A stretch of DNA of 64,000 bases from Antedon mediterranea. Taxonomy: Eukaryota > Animalia > Echinodermata. A program made the position numbers and the translations under genes. Positions within the stretch are counted from its first letter, which is position 1. Every line of letters starts with the position of its first letter. Location: assembly GCF_964355755.1 (NCBI RefSeq), contig NC_092677.1:1634101-1698100 (forward strand). Direction: 5' to 3'. This document shows positions 38,405-56,471 of the stretch, in pieces. The notes below the pieces were generated by a model. The model saw nothing but the letters and a program-made list of their open reading frames with translations, was not told the DNA's origin and made no database searches.

Positions 38405-41400
38405 TTACTTTTTCAATGATTCTTTTATAAAATCTAATGACAACACGTGGTATCTGATGCAGTGACCAAGATCTTCATCTTCTTCAAAATTTGTTGTGTA
38501 AATCATCAAAAACCCTGATTTACCCTCACTCATAAAAGGAACAATTTGTTCACATTTAACTTTACTTCTGTTTTGTAAAATGTCAATCGGCTTGTAATCC
38601 TTTCCACTTCCGGCATGTATCGGCTTTAAACGAATAATTCTATTGTCAGTTGTGTCTTCTAAAAAATGCCACAAACCTTCAAATTTCAATTTCTCTCTTT
38701 CCTGATTTGTAGGGTCTTCTTCCTCTATTGTTTTACTCTCTTTTTTAGTTTTCTTTTTTGATTTTCCCTCCGTTTTGAATGGTTTCGTAATACCATGCTT
38801 TACATTGTCAATAAAACTCCGTCTCTTTTCTATTTCCTTTGATTCTTCTTCATGTACACAAGGTGTCGACTCATCAGGCTCTTGTTGACTTGTTCCTTGT
38901 ATGTCTTCTACTTGTTTTACTTCTGTTTCTTTTTCTTTTACTACTGCTCCTGCTTTTTCTTCCTTCGGAGTTTCATTAGATTCTTCATTTGTAGGAACGC
39001 TCTCATATTCTGCATCAGAAATGGGTTTTTTCTTGCTTTTAATTGACGATAATGTTTTTGAAACTTTACCAAGTACACCCCGTTTCCTTGTTGTCGCGTC
39101 GGTTGTTTTTTCTTCATCTGTTTCATTTGTACCCGCTTGTGGCACATCAGTGTTTGGATTATCATCTTTTGTTTCCCCCAAGTTCTGATTTTCATTTTGC
39201 GGTTGTTGATTTGTGACTGGCGCAACTAGATTTTTGACGGAGTTCTTTAAATCTGCAAGCACACCTTGTTTTCTTTCGGTATTTAATGGTTCTTTTGTTG
39301 CAGATGCCGATGTCTCTTTGTGATTAGATTTAGCATCATCGGTTTTATTTATAGCTGGAACACAAATAAACTTTCCATCTGAAGAAAGTGCAACACTTAC
39401 TACGGGCATATAAGTAGTTGAAGTCTGGAAAAAATATGTATTAGTCAAAACTAAGTTTCATTAGTTTAATTATGAATAATATACTGTACTTTGCACGAAT
39501 GTGCATTTTCAAGTACGGAAAGTATCGGTGAGAGGACAACTATATCAATAATAAACCATCCTCTGAATAAAACACCTTACCTGCTCTTTTTTCAAAAACG
39601 TTGTACAATTATCATTACTAACTCCTTCATACACAACCTTACAGGACTGTAACAATGAAACTATCGCACGTACTTTATCATTGTCTGTTTCGATTATCTG
39701 GGAAAAGGCAGATTCGTTAGATGCGATTAACAATACTATAAAAGTTGTTTAATAACAGTAAATGTTATTGTGTTAGTATAGTTCGTTGATTAAACTTTAC
39801 ACCATTAAGTCAAAAAAGGCCAAACCTGAATTCGCATATTATCCTCAGCATTTTCCATCTTCAAGTATACGATATTCCAATCAATTTCATTTTCTGTCCA
39901 CAATATAAAAGGCTGATAACCTACAGAGAAAGAAAACAGTGTTAGCCTTAAACACAGCATGCAAAATGTATATTATACTATTTAGACTTTTATAGATTAA
40001 GAACTAAAACTTAAGCCCATTGATGAAATATTTGACTTGGTGAATAGGGCTGCTTGTCAGTACAGTGAACATTAGTTCAGATAAAGGACTATTTGACTGA
40101 GTTTGATCGGTCCTAAATTTACATTTAGTAAACCTGTATTGTGTTAAAAATTAACTGACGAGAAACAGTATATCCTTTACACATAAACTTTCTAGATTTA
40201 AGCTTAATGTATATTGTATGTAAAATGTGTGATTCTTACTGAAAGACTGCTTTTCGACATCCGCTTGCTTTTGTGTAGATAACGGAAGATACTTGACCCT
40301 GAATTCGTTTGTTTGACCATGCCTACCATTTTCATTTGTTTTACCTGTAAAACGCAAAAAATATAAATAATAACTTTACGGATCAATAATCCAGTAATAA
40401 TAGGCCAGTAGCTTATTCTTGCCAACATAAATAAACAACTACAAAGTAAGTGGAAGGAAACACAAAAGAGAACTAAATCCCTATGTAGATAAAACATAGC
40501 CTTTTGTAAGATGGTGGGACCAAACCCTATTAGTCACACAGGCTATTCACCCCTTATTCTCCCCGATGCCTACTCAACTTGGAACACTACATTCCTGAGG
40601 TGGGTCTTCCAAGGAAAGTCAATCAGGATGTGGTTAGGGCGCCTTGAGCACTCTGGAGTGGTATGTGCACTATAAAAATCTCATTATTATTATTATTATT
40701 ATTACCATTTGATTAGTCATTCTTACTGTCCCCTTAATATAAATATATGTTTTGTAGTTAAGTTAGTTAGTTTGGGTATTGATTCTTGAAACTATAACAT
40801 CAATCAGAATCACTACAATTTCACATTGTTTGATCATCCTACTTTTGATTGAATAAATAGTATATTGTACATTACATTGAATAATTTTGTGCCATCGTTA
40901 TTGTCTTGGCCCTCGACACGACTACAAATCATTCATAAATATACAAACACGTCCAGCACCAAAGAGAACGTCCTTCCGTTGCGTCCTAGTGGGAATCAAG
41001 TATGATACGAACCGAAAGTTTGTTTGTGTACAAACACTAAACAAACATAATTATTCTTAACAATTTTACCTTTTCGTTTTACCCAACCACCAACAACCAG
41101 CCGTCCAGTGGATAACTTTTTACCGCTTAGATAATCTAGAATGATAAAAACCCGTTTTTAATATAAATGGAAAGAATGACAACTCAACCAGCCTATTGTA
41201 TGTCTAAATTATTGCTGATTTGGATTCCATATCGACAGTCATGTCATTAAGTGAGCGCACGCTAGTTTAACTTACCAAATTTTAAATCTTCAACAGAACC
41301 ATTTGACTCCAATATTTTGATGACGTCATTCATTATTCTGAACAATGGATTTTTGTTTGGCAAAACTACAATCAACTTCCTTTTAATTCTTGACTTAGAT

Positions 41401-44400
41401 TTTGATACATTAACAACCCCGATGAGAATATAAGGGGTATGTTTACCAGGTAACACGGCGTAACTCAGTAATTCCTTTCTGAAAACAAAGATACTACGAT
41501 GTATAATGTTGATATATACAATACAGAAGGAAGTATCAACTGTACGTTTGACCGGTTGTTTTCCACTAACTTGGTAATTCAACAAAAAAAGATGATTTAT
41601 TTGAAGAAAGCTTTATATAATAATTAGCATGCTAACGCTAATGTTGTTAATGGAGCAATTCCGAGAACATTCAACACTATATCTCAAACATAGCTCAATA
41701 ATTAACAATTAAGGTTACAAAATCTTACTCTGCCTGGATTAGCACGTTAGCTTCTTCGTCCCATGTAATACGGGTAGGGAATTCCTGCGTCATGTCAGGA
41801 ATTCCTCTACACATTATGTACTTATGGTGGTCATTCAAAAGCAAAAAAGCCCTGTTGTTAAGAACTACTCCACCAGAGCTGAAAAATAATACAAAATATA
41901 AGGTATTTATATACAATCTTTAAATAATGACCTCGTTACGAGCCGAGACCCATACATACATGGTTTATTAATATGGCAGTTAACACCACGATAACTTCTA
42001 TAGGCCTACTATTTGTTATTGTATGTATCAAAACTGGATATTTATTAAATTCTTTTAATACTAACATTATTAAACTGTCTCTTTCTTAAATACTGTTAAT
42101 ATTATTTCCCTATTTGCTATGTTCATCCTATAATTACGATACCACCTTTGCTATTTAACATTGTTTTCAATTAAACACAACAAACTACATACCTAAGCAA
42201 TCTTCCATCTGTATTTCTATGAACTGCATCTAAAAAAATTATTTAATTAAAAAGTTATCTTCCAATCTATTAAAGATGTATTGTCCCCCCAAAAACATGA
42301 TAAATGAAGATTATTCAAATCAGATTTTGAATAGGCCATTAGTAGTTTAAATCAAGTAAATCACTTCCGTATAAAAGAAACTAAAATTTAAAAAAATGTT
42401 AAATTCAACCAAAATCACATTAGTTGGACGCAAATTTGACTATTTTTCCTTTAAATCACATTTTTTCAGGTAAATATTTGTATAGTCAAAGTGAATGACT
42501 ATAATGAAACTTAGAAAATAGCATAACATATAGCACAATTTTATTGGGTGACGTATTGACAATACAACTGATTTGTTCAAACAAACCAGTTCAGATCAAT
42601 TATAATCATTTTTTTTCAATTTATGTCATATAATTCAATAGAATGGATGTAAAATGATGGATGTAAACATATTTCTCAGCTTTCCTTATCTCAATATGAC
42701 TTGATTAGGGTACTCTGGAAATTATAACATTAATAATATAGTCTACCTTGTTTTTATAATTAAATTGTCTCCCCATACTTACTTGTGAGTCTAATGCCTA
42801 ATTCACCACCAAATCTAAATCGTGTTGTTGGTTTAGCACCAGACTGTTTTGGTTCCTGTTTTACATTCACAAAGCATCCAAAACGCCCTTCATCGTCATC
42901 AGTCACAGAGCGGGATTCTAGAGATCCTTCCGCACCTTTCACACCTTTACTTATTTTAGACTTACAATTCAGAGATATATTTGGTTGGTAGATTTTTGTT
43001 TTATCTTGATTCTTCTTATTTGGTTTTAAGACAAAGTCAAAGTACGGTTCTTTGTATCCACTAATGGTTATGATATCCAATAGTTGGTCTGTGTAAGTTA
43101 ACTCAAATGGAGCTGCTACGTCAGATCCTCTTGGTACTACAATCTCACCAAATTTAAATGTTATTGGTTCATCTTTCACTAGATCTTTGTTCACCTTCAC
43201 TGGTTGAATATCATATTTCTCTTACAAAAATTAAAAAAGTGTTAGATATCATTTTATATAATAAATGCATTTTAATAACGTGCAAATATCATCAGTGGCT
43301 CAGAATAAATATAATGACGTACGTGCGCATACATAATCATATAATGTACATTTTGAGTATTCTTCCCTGAATTTATGTTTCTTAGGAACTTTATTCAACA
43401 AATTAGTCATAATAACCATAATAATAAAAATGTAGTACTGCAGGGATTATTTTTTTACATAATTTCATTTAAAAAAACATTTATTTTCCTCCATAGCAAT
43501 ACAATACAAAATAGTATACAGATGATAAGGTAAAATAATAATGATAAAGATGATTGTTGGATGGACAAAAGAAAAGAGGCTATGGAGGAAGGCATAATAA
43601 TAATGGAGTGGAGCTGTACTGGGGTGGAAGGTGTTGCGGAGGGGGTTTGGTTAACGCAATCCTGACCTAGTGCCAGGGTTGTAACTCACAACTCTTTCAA
43701 CTCCACTCCCTAAGCCTCAAATGAGAATTAATAAGCATGATAAATTATAAAATAGTTTATCCATCCTGTAATTTGCGAGTTGCACATAAGATACATCCGA
43801 AAACACAGGCATTCCACATTGTCACTTAATTATATCTTTAAAAAGTGATACCTTTCAAATCTCCTGGTGTATCTGTAAGATGTTGGATGAGTTTATGGCT
43901 TGCCTTGTTGTTTGTTATGGTCTCAATCTAAAAATAAATAATGATAATCATGATTCTAAGATCAAGCCCATCTATTATTATCAATTTTAATTAAAAATCC
44001 TAACAATCGTACATATTTATTATATAAATATTAATGTTATGACACATCACTGCGTGTCCCGTGCTGGTTCCATTGACTTTTTATAATACACATAGAGTAA
44101 CAAATAATATTTCAAGAATAAAATTGTGGTTAGGCCTAAATGGAATGTAATACAATTTATAGTTTTAAACAAACAATCTATTTTAATTGTTGTCCATTTT
44201 TACCTTGTTTGGTTGTATACTTACAATAGTATAAATGTCACGTTGTTCCTTCTTCCTGGAGTATATAACATACACAACACCCAGAATTACGATCACGACA
44301 ATTGCTAAAATAACAAAAGTTGCTATAATCGCCCCACTGCTACTAGTTGATGGAGGAGCTGTTACCTCATCTGTTAACATAAATCGTATAATGCATCAGT

Positions 44401-47400
44401 TCTGGTATTTTATTACAGTGCTTATATTTAACATAGTGGAGCTGTAGCTTGGTGGTTAATGCGCTTCCCTTCCAATCCCAGGTCCCGTGTTCAATCCTGA
44501 CCTTAACTCACGACTCTTTCAACTATATCACCTAAGCCTCAAATGAGAATAAGTTTATAAGCACGATAGCTTGTTAAATAGTTTAACCATTCTTTTCAAA
44601 ATCTTGATCAGTACATTGGTTGCCACCCACTGGTAACCAGGGACGCGCCAGCCAAGCCGAACCATTTTAAAAATTTATTTACAAATGAATGCGTATGAGA
44701 TTTACAAATTACTTTTTTCAAGTTTTTTTCTTTGTGATAACATTTGGTTTTTTCTAAAGGGTTTTACGACTACAGAAAATGATTTGTCTCTGTAAATATT
44801 TATATTGTTGAATAAATGTGAATTGAACTTTTGAGCAGTTTACAAATGGTCTGTATGCTACTATGGCTCATTCATTAACAGAGAAACGGGTCTTATGACG
44901 GGTTTTCCTGCGAACTGAATAATTCATGCGTGGGTGTTTGTTTCTTTCGTCACCCGGACTGTATAAATCATAAATTTACCTTTAAGCCTATATGTAATTG
45001 AGTTACTTGCTTTTTCATTTTTGCCAAGTTCAGATTCGTTTTCCACTTTACAGCTATAGTTTCCTTTATTACTTTCATCAAACGTTTCAATTTCCAATAT
45101 ATCATTTTTAAAGTTGATTTTTCCAGGGATCTCTTTCAAAATCTTATTTCCATGGAACCACGTCCTTGTGATTTGTTTTGGATAAGCATCTTTCAAGTTG
45201 CAAGACATTGAAACCTTGCTTCCTCTTACGGCTTCCAAGTCACCTAGGGCCATCAATGTCGGTGTATCCAAGTCTGTCAATCAAAGTATAATCATAAGGA
45301 TACTGCGGGTAAATATCATTTATTTGGTGCTACAATCTAAGTTCCCAAACTTAATTCAAATGAGATGGTGGGAATTAATTACACATTACACAGCTCAGGC
45401 AGCTGAAGACGATCTTACTTATACGCGTTCTGTTCACATACAGCCGAAACACAAGAGCATTGGGCATTGGAGGGCTGTGGGCAGTTATGTACAACACTTC
45501 TATTAGTTTTCGTTTAATATAACTTCTATAGGCTTACTTAAATAGGGCTCAAACCACTCGGGTCTACAAAATGTGTATAGCCATTTGAGGAAAAATAATC
45601 GCGGTGTGCACAATGTGCTGGAACTGATAGAGTTCATAACGTACAATATTTACAATTAGTTAACAGTTTCGTGGTGAGAAGACGGGACGTGGTTATGTGC
45701 TTGTGGTTCACATGGGTATAATACACTTACAATATACGGTTAAAGAACATTTCGTCTGGAAGAGTATAGTAGCTCCAGTAGACTCGTCATTTACTCCACA
45801 CGTGTACGAACCTTCATCTTGTCTGCTAACAGCATTGATAGTCAGGCTAACATATCCTGCAGTATCACCTTGCTTTGGATCACTCAGCGAGTATCTAGAC
45901 GCAGCATCGTCTTTTCTTGCAATAACCGTCTCGTTTTTCTTCCAGTAGTATTTGCCGATCACGGCGTTTGTTGGTATGAAGTAACATGGTAATGTAGTGG
46001 TCTCCTGCCCTTCAATGGCAAATTGTGACTCAGCAGTGAGTTTGGTAATGCTTTGACCAACTGAAAAAGAACATGATTCTCCAGTTTACAACAAACTAGA
46101 GGATTTAAGAGGGTTTATTTATTTATTTGGAATTACACCTTTAGATCGGTGGCACACTTAGCACAAAGGTGCATCCTTCACAATATAAAATATAACAATT
46201 AACAGAAAAGTAAAAAAAGGCAAAAGCAACTATCAACCCCTATCCTACCCCCCCCCCCCCCCAATTTACATCGATACATACAGTAGATCATTACTTTACA
46301 CAATGAATACAAAACAAGATATAGTAAAAGTGTATAAAATAAAATAAAATAAAATCAGCTGATAAACACAGCTTATTACGAAAAACCCCCAACTCCTCCC
46401 CCCAAACCCCCCCCCACCCTCCCCCCCCCCCCCACTTTTTTTTCAATTTACTTAATGTAGCAATGTAGATAACATAGTTATTGAGTCATGGAATTCAGTG
46501 AATCATTTCGAAATTGCCATGCTTGTTTTAGGTATCTTTTACAAAAACTATCCAAAATATTTTCACACTCTTCATCAATTAAATTATCTGAGTATCCCAA
46601 AATATATTTAAGTTTGTCATTTTCAGGAGAAGTATAAAAAGTATCAAACATATCTTTGCTGCCATTTCTATACATATCCACATATAAATTAAATAATTCC
46701 TGATTACGTATATTATTTAAAGCTGGACAATTAAGGATGAAATGATGGATGTCTTCGTCCGAATTTGTACCGCACAATTTACATTTTTTATTATTATCAA
46801 TATTCCAATTTGCAGTTTAACGATGACCTATACTGCTGACTGAAATATAGTCAAGCCACCGGGCTCCTGATTCGGTCGGTGACGTGCATTTGGACAAATA
46901 TTTTGTACCGTACAGATGCACATTCATTAGCCGGCTATGTTGGTTTGTGGTCTCGGTTTGTTTATACTGTACCATGAATAAAAAACCGTGCATTTGACTA
47001 GGGAGAATTTATAGGTGATTCTTTTCTTTCACCCATACAGGTAGGACTATTTATACGTAGGCCTACATCAGACAACAATTGTGAATATTATAAGCTGATC
47101 CCTGAATAGAATGTTTTATGTAATAACGATTTTTCTATTCATGTATGCTTTGAGTAACTGATTATGTACGGGTATAAAAACGGGCGTAATGAAAAATACC
47201 GAAAAACATATCTCTTGCACTATACGTTTATACTGTATTAGAATATAAATCACTCATGCATAACATTAACAATCATAATTTTAATAATAGTTTAAGGAGT
47301 ACTGGCTTGGAAAGTGTACTGAAGGCTCTGTGTTTCCTAACACGGCTTCAGCAGGTTCAAAGTACAGTACAGGAACAAGAACGAGGCGTGTGTTTCCAAT

Positions 47401-47806
47401 TTAAAATTAGAATAATTCCCATCAGACTAAGGTAAAGTTTATATTTAAATTCCTGTCATTGTGAAAACTTCACTACCTTAGTCGGTAGGTCCTTGTAAAA
47501 TAATTATCGCAATATGGAATTAAACCCAGAGTGTATAGGTAATCGTACGCCAAATCGCGATACGGTTTTTTATTTCTGCATAATATGCTCGTTTATATTA
47601 GCAATCACATGACACGGATTCATACAGCAAACATAAATTGCAATGTCGACTGCTCCAATGACGCCTGCTCGGTACATGTACAGATATCTTCTACATATAC
47701 ATATACACATACTACGTTTACTATATATCTTACCACTATATTCCAAAAATACTGTTAACATCAATGACCAAAAACTAAGCCATTCCCACGATCTTGTTAT
47801 CGTCAT
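38405..47806 (-). CDS. Ig receptor B (paralog of A): signal peptide, IgV, IgC2, TM, extra cytoplasmic Ig-like exon, degenerate sialidase-like propeller
   Basis: Exons: 47734-47806, 45731-46060, 44980-45273, 44225-44370 (TM AIIATFVILAIVVIVILGVVYVIY), 43852-43927, 42783-43220, 42193-42229, 41729-41878, 41276-41478, 41070-41135 (YLSGKKLSTGRLVVGGW), 40240-40344, 39826-39920, 39581-39697, 38405-39424. Phases are consistent. Confidence 0.85.
44438..44590 (+). mobile_element. tRNA-derived SINE fragment; related fragment at ~43690-43770
   Basis: ggagctgtagcttggtggttaatgcg...gtgttcaatcct has A/B-box-like motifs. Downstream cctaagcctcaaatgagaat is shared with ~43710. Confidence 0.5.
46440..46820 (-). 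mobile_element. 3' fragment of a non-LTR retrotransposon ORF2 (C-terminal CCHC zinc knuckle)
   Basis: CKLCGTNSDEDIHHFILNCPALNNIR (C-x2-C...E..HF...CP); lies in intron 1 of receptor B. Confidence 0.7.
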
Positions 47807-48861
47807 ATTTCCAAATTTCGTGAGTTATAACAAAGCACCAGCCATAAATCTATACATAACGGTTGATTACTTTAGAAAAAAAGGTTTACTCAACCTATAT
47901 ATAGACATATCGTAAAGTACAATGTGCTAATATAAGATACAATACAATGGATAGCAGATAATGAAACTCAACTAGCCTATTCCTGCAACGTATTGTTGGG
48001 AATTTCCGACTCCGCCGTTTACCGTCACGTGTTATTTTCATTAGAATATTATAATTACTTAATGTTTTTTTGTAGCCAATGATCTGTATGTACGCCGATT
48101 TGTTTCCGTTTAAAATTCTGTGATGACTTTTTTCAACAAAGACAATCTAACAACAACCTCTTGCTTCAAGCATACAATTACGATGATGTCTCATAGCCTG
48201 AATATTTGTTTTTCTCTTTTGTGGGCAAAACCCACATTTATTTTAACTTTCATTTTCATTTCAAGAACATTTATTAAATTTCAATAAGGGTAAAATAACA
48301 ATACATATGATATACTGTAATTAAATTGGGGATTCTGTAGTAAAAGAAAAGTTTCTTGTCAAATGAAGGATACAAAAGAGAAGAAACAACAAAGGGCAGC
48401 AAAAAACATTTCAGACAAATTTACTTACCACTTGGAAAAGTTTCATCGGATTTCAGTTCTCCCTTTTTACAAACAAGTTTTTAACATTAATGATCTTTCA
48501 ATGTGATTTTGAATAAGAAATATCTATATTTTTTCCAATAAAAAAAAGTAATATGATATTGCAACATATAATCGCCTCGTCCTCAAAATCATGCATGGCT
48601 ACTAATAAAAAATCAAAATATAGTTTATAATCAAATATATTATTTGTTACTCTATTAACAATTATTGTCTTTATATGTCTTCTAAAGTGTAAAATAAAGC
48701 TGTATATTTATATGTAACTAATTTGTTTTACCGATATTGCAGACATAGTACAGTACCTTTTAAATATCGAAAAGTGATGATACGTCACATATGTTACTAT
48801 TATTATTGGTTGTGCTTTTTCTGCGTATACATTGTGTTAATTAATGATAATTTAAAACACA

Positions 48862-51800
48862 TTAGTCACGCATCAGTAAGCTAAGTTTAAAAGTATTGAA
48901 CACGAGAGTAAGCCTATCTGTTCCGTCTTTTTCTGAGACACTCTCATACAAACAAGCGAACATCCTGACCACTTCGTCTGACCCAGGGTGAAGTCTTTCA
49001 AAATAAGCTAGGTCAGAACTACCGACCCGACCATCCTTCAAAATCAAGTTTTCTTTAGACCACGTGTTGAATCCATCTTTTGACAGTTGAACAGAGAATA
49101 TTGTATCTTTTGATGATCTCATTGAGCTTGAACGAATACCCCAGGAGGGTGAGTTTGTGTTGTCTTCCAATGATGCCTTGAAGCTCACCATACCAGCCTA
49201 AAATACCGTAACGAATATTAGGCCTACAACAAACTCGTAATCTAAAATCTACGTAGGTTAGACAATTTAAAGTAGGCCTATAGTATTTACGTTCATTTCA
49301 TGATGTTACAATTATATCAAGAATGGCTAGGATCTTGCGTTTGGAAGATGCATGAATTCTGACCCTTTTACATCAGACAAGACTAATAAAACACACATTT
49401 TAAAATAAAAATGTCATTATCATATCTAACACCAAGATTTATACTACAATGTCTTCATTATTATTGTTATTGTAATGCTGTTCGATTTATAAAGCACTCA
49501 TACAATCAAAAGATTGTCCCAAAGCGCTGAGAGAAAAAACAGAAAGAAATTACAAAGAAAAAAGATGTTTTTTTTTAAAACTATGATAGAGGATGCATTT
49601 TTAATAGGGTCTTGAAGATTGTTCCACAGTTTAGGAGCTGCAACTGCAAAAGCTAGATCACTGGGTGGAACAAAAAGTGCAGATGGATTTGGTCGACCTA
49701 AGAGATCTTTTTGGAAACTAAAGATCTACGTATTAAATTGGAGATATATAATGGTGATTTGTCGTGAAGAGATTTAAATGTAATTATTACCTGTCTACCC
49801 GGAGTTTGAAAGCTTTCAAAGTTTTTCGTGTCTTGATATTGTTTGTTGCCCGGATGTAGTGACGACGCGGCCCACTCGTCAATTTCATCAGTTGTCTCAA
49901 GAGGCTGAGGAAATGTTCCGCGTCCTGAACAAATAGGACGCCATTCCATTCCGTCCTTACCACCAGTTAGAATAACAGGCGTTAATACGTCTGAAAAGGG
50001 ACAACTTTCTATCAACCAATTTTTAAGTAGCCCGGTTTTCAATGAGAGGCAACTAGACAATCAATTTTGTATTAGGCCTACTGAAATACGTATTACAAGA
50101 ACATAGTTCAATCAGTTATTATTGTAAAGATTCCCAGGATTCTAAAATACGCCTACCAGAAGCCTACTACTTTACAGTGCTAAAAACAAAGGTAGGCTGG
50201 ATAGATCGTATTCAATAATTTGGTATTTGAGAGACCTACTGTAAAACTACCAGGATTATTAAACACCCCATGTTTGTTTTGTTATTATTATTGACTGATA
50301 TTTTGCAAGCATTTATAAAGGATCAAGAGTTTCTTGTTCATTTATGTTTGTTAAATTGTTCTTACTAGTTGATTCAGTCCGAGTCAGTCTCCTGTGAGCC
50401 GAGCTTTCCAACTTAGAAGCGAATCCATTTACTATTAATGTTCCTGTGGATAATTTAATTCCGTGGCCAGTATCTGATAAGAAAATAAAATACAGAAAAT
50501 TATATTCAGGCCATACCGAAACAGAAAATTCTCTTTAATTTCCTCAAAGAAAATTAGTTTAGATTCTTAGGTCGTGTCAATGAGTTGAAGGAATTTTGCT
50601 TATTTTCTGAAATCCAGTTTCCTTGTGAGGAGACAACGTCCCAAACTATGACACTGAAATAAAGTCACCCAAATCGAACTCGTATCTTACTTTTTAGCAA
50701 TATACATTGTAAGCACACGTTTTTCTTTCTGTTGAATTATTGAAATATATGTAGAAATATGTTTGTTATATGATTCGTGGAACATTCTGGCCATACTTCA
50801 TCATCACGAACGCTGAACGTCTGCGCACTTAACAAACTTTTCCAATCAGAGCGATTACTGGTGCATAGACGTATTTATTTAGTATCTGGCCATACTTACA
50901 TAATTCAAAATGGCGCGGTGGTGGGCGTGTCAAATTCTTTCCTTTCTTCCCATTATCGTTGCTCCATGGAAAATGCTGCTTAACCTTTGACCAGGTTCTT
51001 GCACCATTTGTACTATGAGCTGAGAATAACTGCCAATCTGGTGCCCGCTGGGACCTCGTCTCACCCCCCGACGTGAACTTGTTAAAAAGAACCACAATAT
51101 GGCCGAGTCGTTCATTGACCACGATGGGGACTGGATTCTCTGGCCTACAAAACAAATCTGATGTCAATCATCTATAGCTTATAATATATCGTCTGTGTAT
51201 TAACTATATATGTATGTAGGCCTATAATACTTTTATACTGTTCGCTTCCATTGCTTAAAGTAAATTGTAAATTATATTAATTATAAGTCTGTAGGCTATA
51301 CCTGAGAGAACAGTTGCGAATCAAGTATAAAATTATGATTGCGAAAGGAAAAATGATGGAAAATACTAACAACAAAAAAATGAGAAAAAATGATGGAAAT
51401 AGTATAAGATAAAAGAGAATGACTCAGTAACTGTTCAATCATTTGTACCATGTTATACGTTTACTTCCATTTTGGTTCGTCTTCAGGTCCCCCGTGTTTT
51501 CTTCTAGATACTGGAGGTTGATCTCCTCTGAGTACACAGGCACGTGTTGCTTCTCCCATTCTATCGTACGTGAACGCACTAACCCCCTCAACGATACAAT
51601 ACTTCTTGTTTCGCTGGTTGCCGTTCTACGACGCTTTTCACAAAATGCTATTATATGGTAGCGTTCTCCTTGAATAAATGATACCAGGGCTGGCCGCCTA
51701 CCAACAAAAAAATATATTACATTCTGGTTTAAACATTCTGTATAATAATAACAGGATTTTTATAGCGCACATACCATTCAAGAGTGCTCAAGGCGCATTT

Positions 51801-54800
51801 AAAAAAATAAAAAAAAAACAATCATACAAATTCCTGACAAATAAAATACAATTTCTGTTGAGGGTCTCCATCCGTTCTCGTTCTGTCGCGGTCCCGGATC
51901 CCTATCTAGGTTAAGAAACCTCATGATTTCCATATGCCTTAATGAATAAATGTGTTTTTAATCATTTTTAAAAAGTATCAACAGTTTTGCAAAATCGTAT
52001 AGAGCTCGGTAGAACATTCCATAGACGAGGAGCATCCTATGAATACATATAGACTTATGCATCACATGAATACACTAACTATCTGACTACTACTTGCTAA
52101 ATATGCAATTTAATTTGAAATAGTTGTGTCTACATAAAGTAAAGCTTGGTTCCCACTAGAACGTAACGCAAGGACGTAAACGCAACGCAAGCGTTTTAAC
52201 CAATGACAAGCGAAGTTATAGACAGTTAGCAATCACAAGCGAATAAGCCATCGCTTGTGATTGGTCAATTCACTTGCGTTGCGTTACGTCCTTGCGTTGC
52301 GTCGCTAGTGGGAACTACGCTTAAGAGAACGACAATTTAATTGACTGCTATAATACCGAGATAACGTACCTGTATGACGTCATATTAGCTGATGATTCTC
52401 GATGATATGGAAACAATCTCACTTTAAAAAGAATACAAATTTGATTACCGAAAGTTCAATTAATCAAGTTCAAAGTATACGAAAGTATAATCAAGTATCT
52501 AACAGAATTGATTACCTGGTAACGTGAGTACACTATCCCCAAACGAGGAAGTTCCGTTACTCTTTCTGATGACCTCGCATTCATAACAGCCCTCGTCACC
52601 AGAAACGGGATCTCTGATTCTTAGACGTCCTATTCCAGACGAATGTACTGCATAGAATCTGTCGCTACGACACGGCTTGTTACTGGAGACTAGAAAAACT
52701 TTAGTGCCCTGTGGAGTGATCTTGTGCCAGTTCATGTTGGAAACCGTTTCGTGTTTTGGGGTGTACCTACAGATGATATCAACACTTCTATCTTTGATTT
52801 CAAACGCGTTCACGTCGTCAACTGACACCACAATTTTTGCTGAAATGACCCGACAAAAAATCTTTAGAAACACCACGAAAACGCGCGCATAAATACTGAT
52901 ACATTTAGCACGCGTGCGCGCGCCAACTTTGTGTAGTATCATTTACTTTACAATTCTCACTCCTGAGGACGATCAAATCATATTGATCAAGACGTCGAGA
53001 AACTCAACAGTTCTTTTCAGAACTAACATACGTGGTGTACAACAAACATATCAACATTTGATTTCGCCATGCAAACCTTCAAACAATATATCATTACGAT
53101 TTCACATGACGATTTTGGACACGAACAAAAATCAAAATACTATACTTAAGCATTCATCATGAAGTGTGTTGCTAAATTATAGGACATATTGGGTTAAAGT
53201 TTCTGGTCACGTGAAACTTATTTGTAAACCTTTAATCTTAACGGTAGTCTAACTACAAACGACAAACTACTTACGAGCTACAGTAAATGTGGTGGACACC
53301 TTAGCCGTCACGAGTCCAGTCGTAAACACATAACATGTGTAGTTCCCCGAATCTTCTATTTTGACATTAGAAATGTTAAGACCACCAGATCCTTCGTTTA
53401 TAAAAGCTTTGTACTTTCCTTTAAAATAATACATATTATTCCTTCCATGCTAAACATTTCTACATTATCCTTTACGTTTTATTCCTTTTCAGCCTTATTC
53501 GATGATTACTCTAATTTATATTACTATCTAGTGTAGAGGTTAATTCGATTGAATCATGAATTAATTTGATTGTTAGGTCCTATATGTAGTTCTTACTCTA
53601 TTATTATACGAATCCAATTAACAAATCCCTTCTTCTCATTTTTATTAGAGCTCGACTTCAATGATTCTAGGCAGGTAAATGTCGAATCTTTGTCGAACCA
53701 CATACTAGTTATAACGTGTCATATTATGTGTCTACTGGTACAGTTGTGTATTTTTAACAGGCTGATTTAATATACAAAATTTAAAAACGTACCTTTATTT
53801 ATCTTCAGATTTTTAGTACAATCCAGATATCCGGGGGCTTTTCGCTTAAAAAGAGAGAGATGATAATTAAGTTGGTACAATGTGTAGGCTTAAGTATGTA
53901 TTAAGTGAGTAGGCCTATAGTAAGCATTGCAACTTTAAAAAGGAGCTAGTAACAGAAATAGTCTACTGTCGCCCAGCGGTTAGAATGATTCCACAAACAA
54001 ATATAAATACTACAAAGCATAAAATGAGGTTTTATGGTGACCAGTGGTGACCAGTGGTGACCAGTGGTGACCAGCGGTCATCAGTGGGGCAACAATGAAT
54101 GGGTTTCTTTGTCACCTTCTCTTTCTTCTCAACAGTAGCACATTTGTTAACTATGGTATAGACGGGCTCGTTGCTACTTGATGATGACGACGACGACGAC
54201 GCGGTGTTATTAGAGCACATTATCAGGCCGGTACCTCCACGTTTGAACTTCAGCGTGTTAATTTTCATCATCCGATCTTCTTTGTCATTCGTCGCCAAAC
54301 TTTCAATAAGAAATGACAAATTCATCGTGATAAGTGACACTTTTGTTTCATTCTTATACGACATAATAGTTATCGTTTTATCTGTATTTTTTTTAATCAA
54401 ATATACTCTTTTTTATTTTGTATTTATCCGGTTAAAACTTGTAGGCCTACGTGAACCTGATGAGGAACATGATCTATGTAAATACTAATGTCCAATACAT
54501 TAGGTTACTTCTGATAGGGTTGAGAGAACTAACATGAATGTATTCATGAGCATTTTATTACAGACAAATAAAAATACATTCATTGTGCTTTATATTCCAA
54601 ATAAACCATCATCACTAAATAAGTCAGGTTTCTAGTTAGTATGAGACTAATTTGTAAATAAGTAAATGATACTTTGACATTTTAAGGAATCGTTTTATCA
54701 AAAGTCAAACAAAGGAATCAGGATGCACAAAATGCGGAAATCAGAAGAAAATAACAAAACTGAAAGTCGCCAAATGGGAAAGCAAAACTTTGATTACAGT

Positions 54801-56471
54801 TTGTATATTACACGCGCCGAAAACGAATCAATGATACCCGCTAGAAAATGTTTACAAATATAATAAGGTAAGATAATATTCAGGGTAAAATATTCATTCC
54901 CCACTAGATTACAATTGAATTCATTAGTTTAAAGTAACTTTTCTTTTACGTCAACTATGAAAAATACTTACTCAGCGTCTTGTGACTTAACGGGTTCATC
55001 TACAAAATAAATATACAGTAGTAGCCTAACAGTACTATGATTTTACAATAATAACAAAGATGATGATGCTAACGATGATGATGGTCCCACCCTAGAATGA
55101 TGATAATGATTTGATGACAGTCAATACAATGATTATGATGATGGTGATGATTATTATGATAATGATGGTGATGATGTTATGATGATGATGACGATGATTA
55201 TGATTATGACGATGATGATGATAATGATGATAATGATGATGATGATTATGATAATGGTGTTGATGATATAAATGATGATGATAATGATGATTATGATGAT
55301 GGACATAGTGGTGAAGGATTTATCTGATGACGAGACGATGATAATGATGTCATAATCGCCTTACCGACTGAAGGACTAACATTCGCATAGGCTGCTTCAT
55401 CCTCGATAGGCCTGTAGGACATTCTGTTATCATTCGCATAGATTGCATTCTCTAAATCTACCTCATTTGTTCTGGAAATAAAATGTTAACAAATTGTAGT
55501 AAATACAGTATTATTCTAATTGAAACATAGAACATCGTGAGCATGTGATCGTGAGCATGTGATCGTACATTCTTTTTAAGATTAATGTTCTTACCTTCTG
55601 TTTTCCCTAGTTTCATTGATTTCTGTTTTGGAAAAAAAAATAAACTTTTTAACAGAATGCTATAAGGGTATTGGATTAAAAATTAAAAAGGACAATTATT
55701 AGGCCTATTACATTTTACTTTTCTATACTAAACGTCAACACTTGACAATATTACATTTTATTTTTCTTTAACAAAACATTACCATTATTTGAGTCGTTGA
55801 ATGGAATCTCCGCTAATATATCACCAATGGGCTTGCCGACGTCATCGGTTCGATACCACCGCATGTATGAGAAAACTTGGTTTGGTGGTGTTAACGTACA
55901 CTTGATGGTCGCATTGGAATCCTCCTCAGCTACGGTGCTTTCTAACACTAATGTGACGCCCGTATTCTTTACTTTGAATAAACCTACTCATAAAGTTGAA
56001 TTACAGAATGTGTATGAAGCGCAAGAAGGGACGAATAAGATGAAGAATGGAGGTAAAAGAGTGGATATAGAAATACAGAGTAGGCCTACTAATGTACAAA
56101 TGCGATTAGTATATTCATTGATAATGAAACGTAATTATTAGGCCTACAGATTCAAACAATTTTGTGCGACCTTAACTAATATAATAGTGTCTAGGTACTT
56201 GATTTTGTTTCTACTGACTAAAAGGCTAACAGACATATTTTTCTATAAAAAACAAAATACTACTGTACAATGTATTTTAACGCATATTTCAACAACCCAC
56301 TCACAAAGATCGAACGTAACGATACACACACCCTTTTTTCATGAGCGACAAATAAATAATTAAGTATGCATGCTTACCTTTTGTAGCGCACACTAATAAT
56401 GCAGATATAATGATGAACACGGATATGAAGACAAGAAGAACCGACGAGTAGATATCAGTACTGTAGTCCAT
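48862..56471 (-). CDS. Membrane-anchored protein: N-terminal TM, split IgV with Tyr-motif insert, IgV, GH33 sialidase-like (NEU2/3/4-type) domain predicted inactive
   Basis: Exons: 56378-56471 (MDYSTDIYSSVLLVFISVFIIISALLVCATK), 55783-55983, 55595-55622, 55365-55471, 54972-54999, 54116-54299, 53793-53844, 53275-53418, 52516-52839, 52370-52421, 51449-51697, 50900-51144, 50366-50473, 49791-49990, 48862-49197. Sialidase motifs: SYRRPALV, IAFCEKR, ENPVPIV, Asp-box-like STNGARTWS and SKDGFNTWS, GHGIKLSTGTLIV, GSSDLA, FACLYE. Confidence 0.82.
49480..49788 (-). mobile_element. L2-clade LINE 3' fragment
   Basis: ITFKSLHDKSPLYISNLI ... AFAVAAPKLWNNL, the same ORF2 C-terminal motifs as 21950-22755. Confidence 0.75.
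51745..52037 (-). mobile_element. L2-like LINE 3' remnant
   Basis: APRLWNVLPSSIR...FKTHLF on the - strand, plus an L2-type tail (gcgccttgagcac...gcgctataaaaat). Confidence 0.6.
52142..52323. mobile_element. Palindromic MITE
   Basis: aagcttggttcccactagaacgtaacgcaaggacgtaa at the left, ttacgtccttgcgttgcgtcgctagtgggaactacgctt at the right. Confidence 0.75.
55055..55350. repeat. (GAT)n degenerate intronic microsatellite
   Basis: Long gatgatgat tract. Confidence 0.85.

Follow-up and report, generated by a model that had tools for sequence, protein, structure and literature searches.

The stretch of Antedon mediterranea DNA analysed here (64 kb, called the window below) contains on its minus strand a 15-exon gene, joined from 56471 to 48862 in window positions, which are used throughout. 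With a probability of roughly 0.6, we read its 783-residue product, XP_071958173.1, as a membrane adaptor of type III topology that faces the cytoplasm, has no ectodomain and presents a phosphotyrosine loop from within a V-set immunoglobulin (Ig) domain. The protein consists of a hydrophobic anchor (residues 11-29), a split V-set domain that we call V1 (40-279), a second V-set domain, V2 (280-387), and a sialidase-like domain of ~395 residues. A first-pass annotation of this DNA had described the split domain and its tyrosine motifs; the anchor, V2 and the sialidase-like domain, all encoded by this gene, were absent from it.

A V-set domain interrupted by five exons

The translated 15-exon join is identical, letter for letter, to RefSeq XP_071958173.1, which is itself a computed gene model, and all ten motifs named in the first-pass annotation were found on the minus strand at the positions given there. 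The seven exons that make up V1 and its insert have canonical AG/GT ends throughout and are linked in the same way by the independent RefSeq model. The five inner exons (28 + 107 + 28 + 184 + 52) add up to 399 nt, or 133 residues, and the reading frame is open both with and without them, the two V1 halves joining in phase 1. The exon ends and the RefSeq identity thus confirm that an IgV domain is divided between one exon for strands A-C' and one for strands D-G, with a five-exon cassette between them that can be skipped in frame. An origin of the two 28-nt insert exons by duplication was rejected, as they share 7 of 28 bases. The intron after insert exon 2 holds a CAT microsatellite (55350-55070); in Anneissia japonica, a crinoid of another family in the same order, isoform X1 reads into an Ile-rich stretch at this place, which suggests that the repeat is common to both species.

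The first half of V1 matches positions 5-38 of the Pfam V-set profile (E = 0.052, weak alone) and the second half positions 68-108 (E = 1.2e-5). The Ig hallmarks are present, with Cys60 in strand B, Trp74 in strand C and DSGNYTC260 in strand F, and are also kept in Anneissia. Two AlphaFold2 runs, on shallow alignments of 9 and 21 rows, gave values of the predicted local distance difference test (pLDDT) of 79-90 for residues 51-90, 81-89 for residues 231-280 and 25-40 for the insert, and the halves are predicted to fold as one domain in which a disordered loop replaces the C'' region. When the first model was compared with known structures, 5 of the 50 rows were single-chain variable fragment chains aligned over residues 39/40 to 387/388, and the 190-203 residues aligned in them require both halves in one V domain; the high root-mean-square deviation of these alignments reflects the orientation of the domains. 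V2 compared with antibody V domains at Z = 14.6, and Foldseek with the whole model returned Ig proteins only; the propeller is modelled well only at residues ~400-545. Folded as two separate chains, the V1 halves scored 0.39 against 0.01 for the best control, with contacts agreeing to at least 82% and a partner pLDDT of at least 68. This supports a single fold weakly. Of the solved pairs 51 of 78 passed the mark, and of the mismatched pairs 2 of 108; scores of 0.60 or lower, seen in only 5 of the 78 solved pairs and in all four passing mismatches, mislead more often than not unless a prior is available. The pass could reflect Ig folds memorised by the predictor.

In Anneissia, both parts of the gene lie on one 1.9-Mb contig but belong to separate annotated loci: LOC117121689 has the anchor, the A-C' half and the beginning of the insert, and LOC117121679 has the D-G half, V2 and the propeller. 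Identity between the two species is 17/31 for the anchor, 31/54 (57%) for the V1 N-half, 26/41 (63%) for its C-half, 65/108 (60%) for the intact V2, 222/393 for the propeller and 18/47 (38%) for the first two insert exons. Judged by this conservation, the N-half is under as much constraint as folded domains are, and a half domain with 57% identity and with its Cys and Trp in place is unlikely to have been kept unless it folds with a partner. This speaks against two separate products in place of, or alongside, a single one, an arrangement that we consider unlikely. One product would resemble LAT, a short adaptor made up of the anchor, half a V domain and a YxN tail, and the other would be soluble and begin at about the D-G exon, with the full model minor or fused. 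It would fit the Anneissia annotation, which breaks inside the insert, the 5' locus ending in or just past the second insert exon, and the stop that a read-through of insert exon 2 meets in Antedon after a few dozen codons. It would also fit six family models (P0002, P0012, P0050, P0068, P0101 and P0109) that begin within the insert or at the D-G half and that may be annotation failures or genuine shorter products. Tiny low-complexity exons are a common break point of gene models, however, and the Antedon RefSeq model links all exons, while nine other models cross the insert. Conservation in the orthologue, the AlphaFold2 models and, weakly, the two-chain fold support the earlier proposal that V1 is one Ig fold carrying an inserted loop of 133 residues.

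The first-pass annotation had further suggested that splicing might switch the whole cassette, giving a plain V domain or a signalling one, and this we regard as less probable still. Skipping all five exons leaves an open frame, and the blocks 1-2, 2-3 and 3-5 can also be removed in frame, but no single insert exon can. Partial splicing within the insert is annotated in one paralogue (P0110/P0111), although its short isoform still retains an insert of 117 residues. Equal phases at both ends would arise in any case from an insert that developed within a single intron, which makes them weak evidence for a switch. The A-C' half as query matched a single protein among 18 candidates, XP_071958173.1 itself, so that no isoform skipping the whole cassette was found among the proteins holding this exon, and the proposed switch is left unsupported. 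Among the transcript matches listed for runs X1 and X2 (41000-54030), which are dominated by repeats, no contig crosses the insert junctions, and this is no evidence either way; one X1 contig lacks the last intron, indicating that the 3' end is spliced, and an X1 contig has an end that falls exactly at 52839.

Membrane anchor, orientation and the paralogue family

The segment at residues 11-29 is the only hydrophobic one in XP_071958173.1. Its hydropathy of 3.16 compares with 2.9-3.6 for membrane helices and 1.2-2.1 for signal peptides of the family, and its flanks carry charges of -2 before and +3 after. Together with Cys28, which is kept in Anneissia, these values make the anchor resemble the membrane helices of the family and not its signal peptides, and recall the layout of PAG, a type III protein with Cys and basic residues after the helix according to the accessible part of PMC2213442. 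The protein has the single Cys28 and no juxtamembrane CxxC, a motif that appears optional in transmembrane adaptors, since the accessible text of PMC3342071 gives it for LAT, NTAL and PAG and not for LAX. Ectodomain exons further upstream were considered and rejected, because another gene ends ~1 kb upstream and the orthologue has its start at the corresponding position.

A library search returned 99 matches, mostly generic Ig proteins, and a family profile added 14 further rows, 12 of them labelled Antedon; every named family member is a crinoid. In P0056, P0105, P0106, P0110/P0111 and P0112, what looks by eye like a signal peptide is followed by between one and five Ig ectodomains, a single strong membrane helix and related V domains. 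P0104 and P0027 have a similar layout with incomplete N-termini, and P0104-P0106 end in a sialidase-like domain. In seven such receptors, the part before the helix has 55 sequons where shuffled sequences have 26.0, and the part after it has 45 where these have 43.5. The pair of Ig cysteines is intact in all 10 full ectodomain V matches and in 27 of 38 post-helix matches. Being paralogues, these proteins are not independent of one another. In 10 models, cut by hand, the first post-helix V domain is interrupted at the C'-D position by inserts of 29-197 residues. P0018 has lost both cysteines of the interrupted domain and carries YSGP, YDEI and YDYI in its insert, and P0110 and P0111 are identical except for ~80 residues inside the insert. 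The tails of inhibitory receptors carry the immunoreceptor tyrosine-based inhibitory motif (ITIM), with the consensus (I/V/L/S)xYxx(L/V), and this P0111 segment has two matches to it, VTYADL and IKYVDL. In P0103, a later V domain (residues 574-640) is also broken at its C'-D loop, here by tandem SPDPTSVQ repeats, which makes a second, independent insertion at this site.

The first-pass annotation took the Ig fold for an intracellular pedestal. This gains indirect support from the V arrays and the sialidase-like domain that follow the membrane helix in the paralogues; for XP_071958173.1 itself, we infer it. The alternative is that the C-terminal part is extracellular, behind a type II anchor or a cleaved signal peptide, with disulphide-bonded V domains, a propeller acting as a sialic-acid lectin and a loop that is sulfated on tyrosine or cleaved by proteases instead of docking SH2 proteins. 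It would explain why all four Ig cysteines are retained in both Antedon and Anneissia and why the V1 halves and V2 carry a mild excess of sequons (5 against 2.5 expected, p = 0.076). Sulfation favours tyrosines preceded by acidic residues, as are found before Y119, Y136 and Y200, and a possible signal-peptidase site lies near residue 29 (by eye). Yet the whole post-anchor part has 10 sequons against 8.6 expected, the anchor is far more hydrophobic than the signal peptides of the family, and related V arrays and propellers stand after the helix, without sequon excess, in receptors that do have a signal peptide. The family architecture and the sequon and charge tests thus favour a cytoplasmic C-terminal part, while the retained cysteines and the mild sequon excess do not, and we hold an extracellular location to be improbable.

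Besides these cysteines and sequons, the break in the Anneissia annotation and the lack of junction contigs, further observations weigh against a cytoplasmic adaptor that belongs with the receptors. The flanks of the helix give no clear N-out signal in P0004 (-1/0) and P0018 (+2/+3). After the orthologue, the best pairwise match of V1 is the extracellular single-exon V domain of a neighbouring gene at ~25390-18280 (score 131 against 104), as would be expected of an ectodomain. A tree of 32 V domains had support for 8 of 29 inner branches and gave no usable grouping (the row for the V domain of window gene C was in the wrong frame and was disregarded). With this best match and this tree, a common origin of the split V domains across subfamilies is at most a conjecture. 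In the P0103-P0112 group, the N-half has worn too far to be recognised as a V domain by itself (hhalign probability of 0.3, two of six pairwise tests below 0.05). P0103-P0106 and P0110-P0112 also share a conserved Cys-rich hydrophobic stretch at the start of the insert (7-9 cysteines, hydropathy 1.75-2.0), which could be a second membrane helix or a palmitoylated, membrane-hugging segment; P0056, P0027, P0018 and XP_071958173.1 are without it. Given the unsettled tree and the extracellular best match, it is the architecture and the common propeller that tie the gene to the receptors, not orthology of the split domain.

At slightly less than even odds, we see here an expanded crinoid receptor family that carries V-set domains both outside and inside the cell, the cytoplasmic ones being scaffolds whose C'-D loop accepts splice-tunable exons with tyrosine motifs, and that ends in a dead propeller; XP_071958173.1 would be its ectodomain-less signalling adaptor. 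The family is apparently undescribed: a literature search at the level of titles and abstracts, its scope leaving aside most subscription journals and the supplements of genome papers, found no paper on it. If the reading is true, V domains copied behind the helix, SH2-type motifs placed within a fold and a pseudo-sialidase cap would amount to a new design of receptor tail, in a candidate immune or adhesion receptor family of the earliest-branching living class of echinoderms. This family would have paired forms, namely ectodomain receptors, ITIM-bearing isoforms and an adaptor without ectodomain, and its C'-D loop would be a site where the V fold tolerates inserts of the range observed.

Tyrosine motifs and comparison with known systems

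Four of the five insert tyrosines match YxN or Yxx[VILM], against 1.35 in shuffled sequences (p ~0.02, for a pattern picked post hoc), and insert exon 4 has no Pfam match. Y119 (YAND in Antedon, YVNE in Anneissia) and Y136 (YANV and YANI, within AYAN[VI]SP) are kept in Anneissia and Y127 is not; the comparison covers only two YxN sites, as the exon with the Csk-like Y200 is missing from the Anneissia models. In XP_071958173.1 only Y200 (PVYTIV) comes near the ITIM consensus. The first-pass annotation had likened EPVYTIVNK to Csk-binding sites that are said to read YSSVNK in PAG1 and EPIYAKVNK in CagA. YxN is described as the Grb2 motif (PMC3342071), and Csk is described as binding Y317 of PAG (PMC2213442) and EPIYA motifs (PMC4946704), each in the accessible part of the source; that of PMC2213442 has no occurrence of YSSVNK. 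Grb2 (through YxN) and Csk are thus candidate partners suggested by motifs.

As a type III adaptor, the protein would be inserted with its N-terminus outside and its C-terminus inside, possibly with palmitoylation of Cys28. V1 would fold around the loop and keep it near the inner leaflet, where kinases of the Src or Syk type would phosphorylate it. SH2 proteins would then dock, Grb2 at Y119 and Y136 and either Csk or a different SH2 protein at Y200. A spacer and docking surface could be provided by V2 together with the dead propeller, and the whole protein may act as a partner or downstream of the ectodomain-bearing paralogues, in the way that transmembrane adaptors pair with immune receptors.

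As a rule, V-set domains work in recognition outside the cell, and the tyrosine motifs of receptors are found in unstructured tails. Similar to the transmembrane adaptors LAT, NTAL, PAG/Cbp, LAX and GAPT, as portrayed in the accessible parts of PMC3342071 and PMC2213442, XP_071958173.1 has a short, presumably outside N-terminus, one helix, a juxtamembrane Cys, basic residues, YxN and Yxx-hydrophobic motifs and no predicted enzyme activity. Its motifs, in contrast, sit on a loop that interrupts a V-set domain, with V2 and a propeller behind it, and it has one Cys in place of CxxC. We claim no sequence homology. To our knowledge, no tail of a transmembrane adaptor is built on folded Ig domains. 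The nearest known tail with beta-sandwich domains and a phosphorylated segment is that of integrin beta4, which combines Ig-like domains of the fibronectin type III kind with a tyrosine-phosphorylated connecting segment (PMC8060419, in its accessible text). These are not V-set domains, however; the segment connects two domains and does not interrupt one, and there is no propeller. The closest functional parallel is the kinase insert of the PDGFR/KIT type, in which a cytoplasmic fold is split by a variable disordered loop with phosphotyrosine docking sites; there the host is an active kinase, whereas here it is a V-set domain, and no part of the chain would supply catalysis. The CTX/JAM family and CD4 also have V domains divided between two half-domain exons by an intron near the middle of the domain, but in these the halves join directly and are extracellular, whereas here five coding exons stand between them.

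The sialidase-like domain and other features of the window

A profile built from seven family sequences had human NEU2 (residues 19-359, E = 5.9e-13) as its best match, followed by fungal and bacterial sialidases, with 49 sequences at E <= 0.01, part of them Ig matches; BNR_2 matches were found in P0103, in P0060 and, weakly, in P0002. The profile supports homology to these enzymes. As in the NEU2/3/4/5 branch of metazoan GH33, the domain has a RIP-like motif, Asp boxes and the SDL motif, and it may form the six-blade propeller of these sialidases; it differs in the loss of Tyr334 and Asp46 and in its fusion behind V domains and a membrane anchor. The GH33 catalytic set is R21, D46, E218, R237, R304 and Y334 (PMC3431349, accessible part). 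R21 is kept as Arg405, the nucleophile Tyr334 is replaced by Ser732 in Antedon, by Asn in Anneissia and by Glu in five paralogues of alignment A7, and Asp46 aligns at ~Thr432, with no Asp; E218, R237 and R304 lie in poorly aligned stretches, and no call was made on them. Since the catalytic Tyr and Asp are missing, we rejected an active sialidase and read the domain, from its alignment, as a pseudo-sialidase. Human NEU2, the best solved relative, is given as cytosolic in PMC3431349, which favours a cytoplasmic location of the domain; the accessible part of that paper mentions no Ig fusion (0 occurrences of 'immunoglobulin'). In the Anneissia propeller (P0002, residues ~418-422), a loop missing from the Antedon protein bears a YENV motif.

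Features of the gene for XP_071958173.1 in the window
Feature	Position	Strand	Content or basis
Exon 1	56378..56471	-	ATG, 10-residue acidic N-terminus, 19-residue hydrophobic anchor ending in Cys28, basic flank
V1 N-half, strands A-C' (Cys60, Trp74)	55783..55983	-	Exon ends, Pfam, AlphaFold2, conservation in Anneissia
Insert exon 1, 28 nt, phase 1-2	55595..55622	-	Exon ends, RefSeq
Insert exon 2, 107 nt: Y119 (YAND), Y127 (YRPI), Y136 (YANV)	55365..55471	-	
Insert exon 3, 28 nt	54972..54999	-	Exon ends, RefSeq
Insert exon 4, 184 nt: Ser run, Y200 (EPVYTIVNK), basic stretch	54116..54299	-	
Insert exon 5, 52 nt: Y220 (GYLDC)	53793..53844	-	Exon ends, RefSeq
V1 C-half, strands D-G (Cys260)	53275..53418	-	Pfam, AlphaFold2
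V2, intact V-set domain, single exon	52516..52839	-	Pfam V-set, E = 7.8e-8
Sialidase-like propeller, six exons	48862..52421	-	52421-52370, 51697-51449, 51144-50900, 50473-50366, 49990-49791, 49197-48862

The minus strand encodes two paralogous type I receptors, at ~47810-38400 and 36630-28900, each with a signal peptide (by eye), a V domain, a C-type Ig domain, a helix and a long tail, and they look like family members without cytoplasmic V domains. In an exon model built in this analysis, the post-helix tail of the neighbouring type I receptor at ~33.8-28.9 kb fits the sialidase-like profile with 25.3 bits, against 5.8 for the best of 500 shuffles, which adds to the indirect support for a cytoplasmic location of this domain. 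The gene at ~25390-18280, also on the minus strand, is a type I member of the Ig superfamily with V, I and C-like domains, an epidermal growth factor-like domain, a membrane helix and a short tail. Upstream, a minus-strand gene at ~60600-57535 ends ~1 kb before the ATG, and its product resembles mitochondrial ribosomal protein L40. Long tandem arrays of short units (~16 and ~21 bases by eye) occupy 61430-61040 and 20520-19450.

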